Made by a program: the position numbers. This document shows positions 9,001 through 12,000 of a stretch of 64,000 nucleotides of DNA, piece after piece. Each line of letters starts with the position of its first letter. The stretch's first letter is position 1. The stretch is taken from assembly GCF_013167455.1 (NCBI RefSeq), contig NZ_CP038328.1, one strand, 5' to 3'. Origin of the DNA: Escherichia coli O157:H7 (GTDB taxonomy: Bacteria; Pseudomonadota; Gammaproteobacteria; Enterobacterales; Enterobacteriaceae).

Positions 9001-12000
9001 ATTATCCGTTTGCTTGGCGCTACCCGTGTTGGTCACCTTGATGATGCGTACATGAGTAACGGAAAACCGGTAGGAATCACCCTCTATCAATTACCTCGTT
9101 CGAAATATGAGGAGCTATTAAATGTTAGTACTTAGCGAAAGCTTCAAGAATAAATTGCTTCCCATGAATGGGTATATGAAAGGCGGCAGCGACTCCGGAT
9201 CTAAAGCCCAGGCACGCGCAACTGAAAAGGGCATCGAACTGCAGCGTGAAATGTGGCAGACGAACATGCAAAACCTTGCACCGTTCACGCCACTCGCTCA
9301 GCAGTACGTATCACAGTTGCAGAATCTTTCCTCTCTTCAGGGGCAAGGTCAGGCGCTTAACCAGTATTACAACTCTCAGCAGTATAAAGACCTTGCAGGG
9401 CAGGCGCGCTATCAGAGTCTGGCAGCAGCAGAGGCAACGGGTGGATTAGGCTCTACAGCAACAGGAAACCAGTTAGCAGCAATCGCACCTACACTCGGTC
9501 AAAACTGGCTGTCAGGTCAGATGAACAACTACAACAATCTGGCAAATATCGGCCTTGGTGCTCTTACAGGTCAGGCAAACGCCGGACAGAACTACGCTAA
9601 CAATGTCAGCCAATTGTATCAACAGCAGGCGGCAGCATCGGCAGCAAATGCGAATAAGCCTTCAGGCCTACAGAGTTTTGCTACAGGTGCCATTGGTGGG
9701 GCCGCATCAGGTGCAATGATTGGTAGTGCAGTTCCTGTTATTGGGACTGGTATTGGTGCTCTTGCTGGCGGTGTTATCGGTGGTCTTGGATCATTGTTTT
9801 AAGGTGGGAATATGGCTACTTGGCAACAAGGAATCAACTCAGGCGGTTTTCTTGCTGGTATCGGTGGGCAAAACTCAAATGCGCCAAAGGCAAGTGATGT
9901 AAGTGAGGCGTTGGCCTATATTCGCCAGAACAACGAAATGGAGCGTTCAGGTCGCAATAACATCGGCCTTCAGGCGTTGCAGGGACTTGGTAGTGTCGCT
10001 CAAACATCTCAAGCCGCAAAGCAACAGGAAGCGGATGCTGCATTCCAAAAAGAATATGCGGCAGCCATCCAGTCCGGCGATCGACAGCAGGTTCGAGATC
10101 TGATGACCAAATATCCTGGTCAATTAGAGAAGATTCAGTCTGGTATGAAGTGGGCAGACGAAGACCAGCGCAATTCTATCGGCACCTTAGCGGCTGGCGC
10201 ACGCCTTGCGGCCTCGTCTCCAGAAGCAATGCAATCATGGCTGCAAAACAACGCCAAGGAACTGGCGCGCGTCGGTGTTGACCCTAACAACGTTGCTCAG
10301 ATGTATCAGCAGAATCCTTCAGGGTTTGGTGAGTTTGTTTATCACCTTGGGATGGCTGCTCTCGGTCCGATTGACTACTTCAATGTTCAGGACAAGATGG
10401 CTGGTCGTGAGATTGACCGAGGCAGGCTGGCAGAGACAATCCGCAGCAATCAGGCCGGAGATTTTGAGTTTAAGTCAAAGCCGTCATATTTAGTTCTATC
10501 ATTTGCTGAAATATCATCTGTAGTCTTTATCCTAATGTCTGTCTATATGGTGGCAAAAAGTCAAAATAGCAATGGATTACAGTATGATGCGCTTTTTATA
10601 CCATCAATGGCCTTTTCAATATTAGTGTTTTCGTTTAATGGTGGTATTATTTCAAAAATAATATCAAATAAAGTTATGATACTTTTAGGTGATGCTTCTT
10701 TTTCATTTTACTTGGTCCATACTATAGTAATCAGTACATTGAGCAAGTTCTTTAATGTTTCTGGTCTTGGTGCTATAAGTGTAATTAAATTTATAGTAAT
10801 GGCTCTGTTTGCTTCATTATTTATATCAATAATGATGTATTTGTTTTTTGAAAAGCCAATAAACAATAAGCTAAGAAAATGGTGGAGTGGATTTAAGAAT
10901 GATGTTTCAACCACTCGAGTTGAAAAAATAGAAGGCAATCAATTATAGCAATTAAAGTATGATAAGCATTTATGATTGGTTTTAATGAAATGCATATGTA
11001 GTTAACATATAATAATTGCATTTTGTTATTGTTGATGGTTTCTTGGTGTAAGAAATCCTGAGAAGTGAAAAGCTTTGCTATATGTGCAAGGCTTTTCTTT
11101 TTTATAAGAATCGTTGTAATAACTACTCCACCTTCCCATCAAGCCAGTCCGCCCACCACTGCATCATTTCTCTGCGCTTATCGAGATACTGAGCATGGTT
11201 GTAAATCCCACGCACAGATCCGCCGTTGGCATGTGCTAGTTGCACTTCAATAGCGTCAGCAGGCCATTCGTGCTCGTTCATAATCGTGCTGAATTCATGC
11301 CTGAATCCGTGACCGCTTTCCAGACCTTCATAGCCGATTTGTTTGATCACAAGCAGTACAGCGTTCTCACAGATTGACTTCTTCTTATCGTTGCGCCCGG
11401 CAAAAACAAACTCTGATACTGGTTTAGTGATGGAGCTTAGCGTAGTGAGAAGTTCAACAACCTGGTCCGACATCGGAACCACATGAATCTTGCGTCCCTT
11501 CATCACACTGGCCTCGATGGTGATAATCCTGTTTTCAAAATCGACGTTCTTCCATTGCATGGAACGAAGCTCTTTCGTTCTTAGTGCTGTGTAGCGTAAA
11601 ACTTTGGTCGCAATGAGAGATACGATACTTCCTGAAAATGTTGCAAGTGCTTTGTTGAATGCCGGGATCTGGTCGGCAGGTAAAAACGGGAAGTTCTTCT
11701 TGCGGTATCCCTTCATGGCTTCAGCAAGGTCAGGTGCCGGGTTATATTTAGCCCTTCCGGTGACAATAGCGTAACGGAAAACCTCGCCGCATCTTCTGCG
11801 TGCTTTGTTGGCTCGCTCCATTGCCCCGCGATCTTCAAATCTGCGGATTACTTCCAGCAGTTGCATCGGCTCAATATCCTGAATTTCAAGGCCGCCGATG
11901 ATAGGTAAAATGTCGTCATCAAACATTTTTGCAAGTTCAGTCGCATAGGCGGCTGACCAGACTTGCCTCTTATGCTCGTACCATTCCTTGTAAATCGCAC

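Follow-up and report, generated by a model that had tools for sequence, protein, structure and literature searches.

An in-frame fusion of a gp20-type DNA-ejection gene to an acyltransferase-3 fragment in the argW prophage remnant of Escherichia coli O157:H7

Introduction

The DNA-ejection protein gp20 of phage P22 and its Sf6 counterpart gp12 carry a conserved N-terminal domain, Inj_translocase (Pfam PF16928), which is described as the DNA/protein translocase of the phage P22 injectosome (gp20 family). The O-antigen acetylases (oac) of P22-like phages belong to the acyltransferase-3 (AT3) family, whose members possess ten membrane helices that form an acyl-CoA pore, together with an absolutely conserved R-X10-H motif in transmembrane helix (TMH) 1 and an RXXR motif at TMH3, and all four of these residues are experimentally essential (PMC9833829). 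Here we describe a locus of Escherichia coli O157:H7 in which parts of two such genes share one open reading frame (ORF). It lies at 9812-10948 of a stretch of 64,000 nucleotides (contig NZ_CP038328.1 of assembly GCF_013167455.1), here called the window, within a P22/Sf6-like prophage remnant beside the integrase gene intS and the tRNA gene argW.

Decayed prophages of O157:H7 have been described before. Asadulghani et al. found prophage Sp16 of O157 Sakai to be severely degraded and neither excised nor transferred, and they scored its integration functions as present, replication as defective and nearly all else as absent (PMC2669165). The element considered here is probably Sp16, an assignment that we infer from Table 1 of that study and not from matched coordinates.

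A reading frame composed of two unrelated genes

The plus-strand ORF at 9812-10948 runs from ATG to stop over 378 codons, and it is a chimera of two unrelated genes. The initial annotation had proposed that a deletion fused a phage gene to an oac-type fragment, and this is what was found: both halves could be traced to intact parents, and an intact locus of the ancestral type was recovered. The parts are given below, where 720R6 denotes Lederbergvirus vB_EcoP-720R6, L013 an E. coli contig with the intact locus, and P0157 the AT3 protein encoded there.

9812..10461, plus strand: gp20-type 5' part of the chimera, codons 1-217 (PF16928; identity to 720R6 and Sf6 gp12; end of DNA homology)
10461..10462, plus strand: deletion junction, GGAGA/TTTTGAG (three-way comparison of the window, gp20 of 720R6 and L013, and oac of L013)
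10462..10948, plus strand: acyltransferase-3 3' part, the final 161 codons and the stop, with four predicted helices (identity to P0157 and L013, PF01757, GC content, hydropathy)

The two parts differ in composition as well as in domain content. The GC content is 0.49-0.535 over 9800-10400 and drops to 0.275-0.30 over 10500-11000. A front part of normal GC had been seen correctly, but it makes up 217 of the 378 codons (57%) and not two-thirds, and the break lies at 10461/10462 rather than at about 10480. Residues 12-217 match PF16928 (E=7.6e-65, 219.1 bits, profile positions 1-207 of 218), and residues 230-343 match PF01757, Acyl_transf_3, at positions 215-325 of 326 (E=6.3e-6, 25.9 bits). The latter falls under the 31-bit cutoff of that family, as is expected of a fragment. 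Thus two unrelated Pfam domains share one ORF, and the second covers only the C-terminal third of its model. In a Kyte-Doolittle scan four hydrophobic segments were found (residues 226-244, 262-284, 289-307 and 327-345), all within residues 226-345, and they align with the final four helices of P0157; the sequence LGDASFSFYLVH lies at residues 292-303. The C-terminal part is hence AT-rich and multi-transmembrane and contains this motif, just as had been noticed, and its acyltransferase-3 homology is borne out by the Pfam match and by the relatives described in the next section.

The parent genes and the intact locus

On the N-terminal side, residues 1-217 are identical at 211 of 217 positions (97%) to the start of the 433-residue "DNA transfer protein" of 720R6, and the DNA identity of 95% to this phage ends abruptly at window position 10461. 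The same residues are 74% identical to Sf6 gp12, and full-length gp20 homologues have 421-462 residues. The 5' partner is thus a phage gene, as had been claimed, but a gp20-type DNA-ejection gene and not one of the tail region. A likeness to the partial gene noted at 63947 was not borne out: that gene starts at 63946, and with its 421-residue homologue the best BLASTP match has E=37.

On the C-terminal side, the closest intact relative is P0157, a 375-residue "acyltransferase family protein [Escherichia coli]"; the fragment of the chimera corresponds to its residues 215-375 with 99.4% identity. As an AT3 protein P0157 is complete (100.8 bits on PF01757, profile positions 3-325), and the 487 nt of oac-derived DNA have two mismatches to L013 (99.6% identity). 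An exhaustive HMMER search with the fragment gave 1,267 acyltransferase-type matches with E up to 0.001; the full-length proteins among the matches listed (about 340-400 residues) align C-terminally, and the best of the foreign clusters among them, P0003 (363 residues), is 53% identical. P0157 itself emerged when P0003 was used as the query and every protein retrieved was scored anew with the fragment. The O-acetyltransferase of phage TL-2011b (368 residues) is 38% identical to the fragment over its residues 220-360, and it was the only relative found in the phage collection by DNA and tblastn searches (38% at the amino acid level), where no phage record carries the gene. Six loci were recovered in a scan of IMG/VR with the fragment, all of them the same chimera and none an intact relative, while a word-index protein search with the C-terminal fragment returned only a partial copy of 101 residues and missed even the chimera. 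Judged by these matches, the 3' part is a fragment of a family member, descended from an AT3 gene.

An origin from an oac of the Sf6 type was also considered and rejected. The initial annotation had called the gene Oac-like and placed as in Sf6; this stands at the level of the AT3 family and for the slot beside intS, but the strand is opposite and the match to Sf6 Oac is not significant (BLASTP with the fragment, E=0.47), the full-length P0157 being 23% identical to it.

In the contigs that encode P0157 (L013-L015) the P22-like late region is intact, with a gp20 of 462 or 421 residues, and their prophage occupies the same chromosomal site as that of the window (argW/yfdC/mlaA). In L013 the order is tail needle (282 residues), DUF2824, gp7, gp20 (462 residues), gp16 (665 residues), tailspike (846 residues), acyltransferase (375 residues, plus strand), intS (minus strand), yfdC, mlaA and fadL. 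Window 10461-12520, which extends from the junction past intS into argW, is collinear with L013 10641-12699 at 97.3% identity. By megablast, neither the 5' half of the intact oac nor this tailspike was found in any of the 5,426 complete E. coli genomes in RefSeq. Outside the prophage, the host DNA of L013 matches that of many common non-O157 E. coli at 100% and that of O157 at about 96-97%, from which it follows, as far as flanking DNA can tell, that the intact phage is resident in other E. coli lineages.

The junction and the deletion

Alignment with the intact oac locus of L013 placed the breakpoint at 10461/10462. With the break marked by a slash, the gp20 parent reads ...CAGGCTGGAGA/AGCACT..., the oac parent ...AAACTATA/TTTTGAGTTTAAG... 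and the window ...CAGGCCGGAGA/TTTTGAGTTTAAG... Both parents have the A at 10461, which is a microhomology of 1 nt. Codon 217 (10460-10462) is turned into GAT, after which the native oac frame is read to its native stop. Relative to the coordinates of L013, 6,197 nt are missing: gp16, the tailspike gene and the region between tailspike and oac are gone entirely, while gp20 has lost its 3' half and oac its codons 1-214. By chance alone one join in three would be in frame, so that no selective explanation is needed for it.

We think it very probable that the ORF is a chimeric pseudogene that arose by one illegitimate, almost homology-free deletion in a P22/Sf6-like prophage at argW. The ancestor would have had the order gp7, gp20, gp16, tailspike, acyltransferase (plus strand), intS (minus strand) and attR/argW, and a single deletion of about 6.2 kb, presumably suffered in the prophage state, would have removed all DNA from the middle of gp20 to oac codon 214, and with it the gp16-type and tailspike genes and the stretch upstream of oac. 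The ends would have been joined in frame by luck, and translation starting at the gp20 ATG would enter the oac frame and halt at the oac stop.

Alternatively, the join could stem from illegitimate recombination between two P22-like elements, such as tandem lysogens at argW, with gp20 coming from one of them and the oac-intS side from the other. Indeed, the closest relatives of the two sides differ, as the gp20 side is 95% identical to 720R6 and the oac-intS side 97-99.6% identical to L013, whose gp7 and gp20 have only about 74% DNA identity overall to the genes of the window (93% over the final 305 nt before the junction). Tandem elements also do occur at argW, since a second prophage lies beside it in the window itself. 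However, mosaicism is the rule among P22-like phages and a single mosaic ancestor is simpler, so that we regard recombination between two elements as very improbable; the outcome, an inactive chimeric scar, would be identical either way.

Distribution and age

The whole ORF occurs in 308 of the 5,426 complete genomes, in all of them at 99% identity or more. The AT-rich 3' part with the spacer to intS, searched separately, likewise gave matches in exactly 308 of the 5,426, again at 99% identity or more and without exception as part of the fusion. Chromosomes of E. coli O157:H7 carry a coding sequence (CDS) that matches the ORF at 100% (protein WP_000257010.1), and in O55:H7 CB9615 the same accession is found, with intS and argW next to it in an unchanged arrangement. 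As O55:H7 CB9615 shares the identical chimera, the deletion is, on this comparison, older than the divergence of O55:H7 and O157:H7. The ancestor of both serotypes would then once have borne a P22-like phage at argW with a gene of the O-antigen-acetylase type, which was inactivated before the serotypes diverged.

These data also bear on the view that no fusion took place and that the ORF is a complete phage gene as it occurs in nature, or else an assembly artefact. RefSeq does annotate it like any other CDS, under the name "phage DNA ejection protein", but the same ORF is present in 308 independently assembled complete genomes, no phage record has this ORF, and full-length gp20 homologues (421-462 residues) and AT3 homologues (about 363-375 residues) are always separate genes. 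The whole ORF is thus not conserved intact in phages, in line with the initial annotation, and it occurs only in the O55:H7/O157:H7 prophage remnant. The traced parents, the intact locus and the junction already refute this view, which can practically be dismissed.

Functional consequences

Of the ten AT3 helices six are lost from the chimera. In P0157 the essential motifs are R13-X10-H24 and R83-V-F-R86, both upstream of residue 215 and hence in the deleted part. With R-X10-H and RXXR gone, the chimera cannot, by all that its sequence predicts, be an active acetyltransferase, and a modification of the O-antigen by it is predicted not to take place. The view of the initial annotation that a remnant of a serotype-conversion gene is left agrees with this loss of motifs, and with the position of the oac part in the slot between tailspike and integrase as in L013. 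The gp20 half has neither its own C-terminal half nor any of the partners that it needs, because no gp16, portal or capsid genes are left. The product, if it is made at all, would consist of a soluble gp20 N-domain and the last four of ten AT3 helices, and there would be no virion for it to enter. The oac promoter would be expected in the deleted region between tailspike and oac, and in a promoter scan, promoter-like sites around the ORF were no commoner than in shuffled sequence. From these features we infer that the chimera is a functionless pseudogene.

Some points weigh against a functionless product of one deletion. The ORF is open in all 308 genomes, with no difference in the protein between O55:H7 and O157:H7, which could hint at retention. 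Nearly the whole N-domain of the gp20 Pfam family is kept (1-207 of 218), so that a residual activity of this domain may exist. Furthermore, the true ancestor does not appear to be among the loci found, and the size of the deletion is an estimate from the mosaic relative L013.

The chimera might, on these grounds, have been domesticated and be functional, for instance as a gp20 N-domain anchored in the membrane that hinders ejectosome assembly of incoming P22/Sf6-like phages, i.e. superinfection exclusion. It would combine a nearly complete conserved gp20 N-domain with four membrane helices, its frame is uninterrupted and its protein invariant as just described, and the gp7-like and DUF2824 genes upstream are likewise intact. 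However, O55:H7 and O157:H7 are too close for an open frame to count as evidence of selection, the lineage being too young for conservation to inform, and the one-in-three chance suffices to explain the in-frame join. In addition, the expected oac promoter region is deleted and the upstream promoter signal is not better than chance, and Sp16, which we equate with the remnant as said above, is severely degraded and not excised or transferred (PMC2669165). We therefore consider domestication very unlikely, and its specific form, in which the chimera is expressed and co-opted so that the membrane-tethered gp20 N-domain works against the ejectosome of incoming Sf6/HK620/P22-like podoviruses, as a decoy or dominant-negative, a little less likely still. 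If true, the decoy would be a new kind of superinfection exclusion in O55:H7/O157:H7, built from a deletion scar. We thus retain the interpretation as a chimeric pseudogene.

The prophage remnant at argW

The following features accompany the chimera in the remnant.

8099..8668, plus strand: 3' remnant of the tail-needle (knob) gene (PF16532 Phage_tail_NK, E=1.7e-117)
8665..9135, plus strand: DUF2824 gene in the position of P22 gp14 / Sf6 gp10, apparently intact (PF11039, E=8.4e-65; annotation)
9122..9802, plus strand: gp7-type ejection protein gene, apparently intact (PF25688 P22_gp7, E=5.7e-90)
11067..11097, plus strand: putative terminator-like hairpin with T-run between the convergent oac remnant and intS (pattern scan only)
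11123..12280 (RefSeq), minus strand: intS, prophage integrase, intact, 385 residues (integrase Pfam domains; same place in L013)
12442..12516, minus strand: argW, tRNA-Arg(CCT), the prophage integration site (ARAGORN, annotation)

The needle remnant, which RefSeq labels as incomplete with a missing N-terminus and whose homology to the needle gene of L013 (282 residues) begins only at 8196, forms the left border of the surviving P22/Sf6-like prophage. On the other side, intS adjoins the chimera in convergent orientation, with 174 nt between the oac remnant and the intS stop, and argW lies beyond intS; as a mechanical ORF, intS extends over 11123-12316 instead of the 11123-12280 of the RefSeq CDS. 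No gp16, portal or capsid genes are left in the element, and all head, early and lysis genes are absent as well. We take the K-12 counterpart at argW to be CPS-53/KplE1, which likewise has intS; beside intS, CPS-53 presumably has genes of the gtrABS type and not an acetylase.

To the left of the chimera, the window has an uninterrupted ORF of 231 codons (7421-8116, minus strand) at the place of a minus-strand "replication protein" gene that in PV15-279 (L001 5843-7150) is interrupted by IS1203, an insertion sequence (IS) of the IS3 family. Where PV15-279 has IS1203 the window has about 100 nt (7860-7962), and the IS is absent. Further left of the prophage remnant lies a sucrose-utilisation island of the csc type, of which window 1216-3449 holds a kinase and a major facilitator superfamily transporter. 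In O55:H7 CB9615 (L019 9142-14027), cscA and a LacI-type regulator are found further along this island, and decayed dsdX and dsdA adjoin.

The second prophage beyond argW

A second large prophage begins directly past the 5' end of argW (12517-64000), and the collinearity with PV15-279 stops at 12517. It has its own tyrosine integrase (12637-13881, plus strand), and an ORF at 36342-37298 (plus strand) with a ribosome-inactivating-protein domain is a candidate Shiga-toxin A subunit. Only two complete genomes, ECP19-598 and G5295, share 12300-20000 in full. Just inside this prophage, at 14269-14358, the 9-bp unit GCTGCACTG is repeated ten times in perfect tandem, and on the plus strand this array would encode repeats of Cys-Thr-Gly within a mechanical ORF. 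Near the end of the window, 63675-63935 encodes a glycine-zipper protein of 83 residues that RefSeq names "bacteriocin". The gene that starts at 63946 (MSGFAQGLL...) follows; its full-length homologue in ECP19-598 has 421 residues and no Pfam match, and after this 421-residue gene comes one for an "LPD38 domain-containing protein" of at least 8 kb. The glycine-zipper, 421-residue and LPD38 genes lie within the structural region of this prophage, at places that correspond to those of gp7, gp20 and gp16, with no detectable similarity to these.

Annotation and significance

The chimera (P0152, window 9812-10945) is named "phage DNA ejection protein" by NCBI/RefSeq and "Acyltransferase" by UniRef, and neither marks it as chimeric. 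A genuine full-length AT3 protein of 369 residues (P0172) bears the NCBI name "DNA injection protein [Escherichia coli]", which looks like a spill-over via the chimera by similarity-based naming.

In the library of papers searched, none on this in-frame gp20::oac fusion or on its intact parent was found. The sequence is already in RefSeq and UniRef, and deletion scars and chimeric ORFs are commonplace in decaying prophages. We therefore see in the locus a well-resolved fresh example of ordinary prophage decay with some annotation value, and no consequence of it for the biology or virulence of O157 is known.

Comparison with known systems

Like gp20 of P22 and gp12 of Sf6, the chimera follows a gp7-type gene, and the conserved N-terminal Inj_translocase domain is present in it. 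Unlike these proteins, it is cut at residue 217 of about 430-460, foreign membrane helices stand in for the C-terminal half, and no gp16-type gene follows.

Like the cryptic prophages of O157:H7, the element is what remains of a phage on its integrase side, here at argW: intS is intact, a replication gene is defective and structural genes are few. An IS insertion in some strains and a decay driven by deletion are further shared traits.

The oac part resembles the AT3 O-antigen acetylases of P22-like phages in that it is AT-rich and lies between the tailspike position and int/att; its nearest intact relative is P0157 and its nearest in a sequenced phage the TL-2011b enzyme, but the chimera retains only TMH7-10. 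While oac of Sf6 is on the strand opposite to the late genes, the oac part of the chimera is co-directional with them, like that of TL-2011b and L013, and it is because of this orientation that a plain deletion was able to yield an in-frame fusion. The place of the remnant, at the prophage end beside int and the tRNA site, is that of the serotype-conversion slot of P22-like phages, where the order is tailspike, oac, int and attP in Sf6 and tailspike, oac, intS and yfdC in L013.

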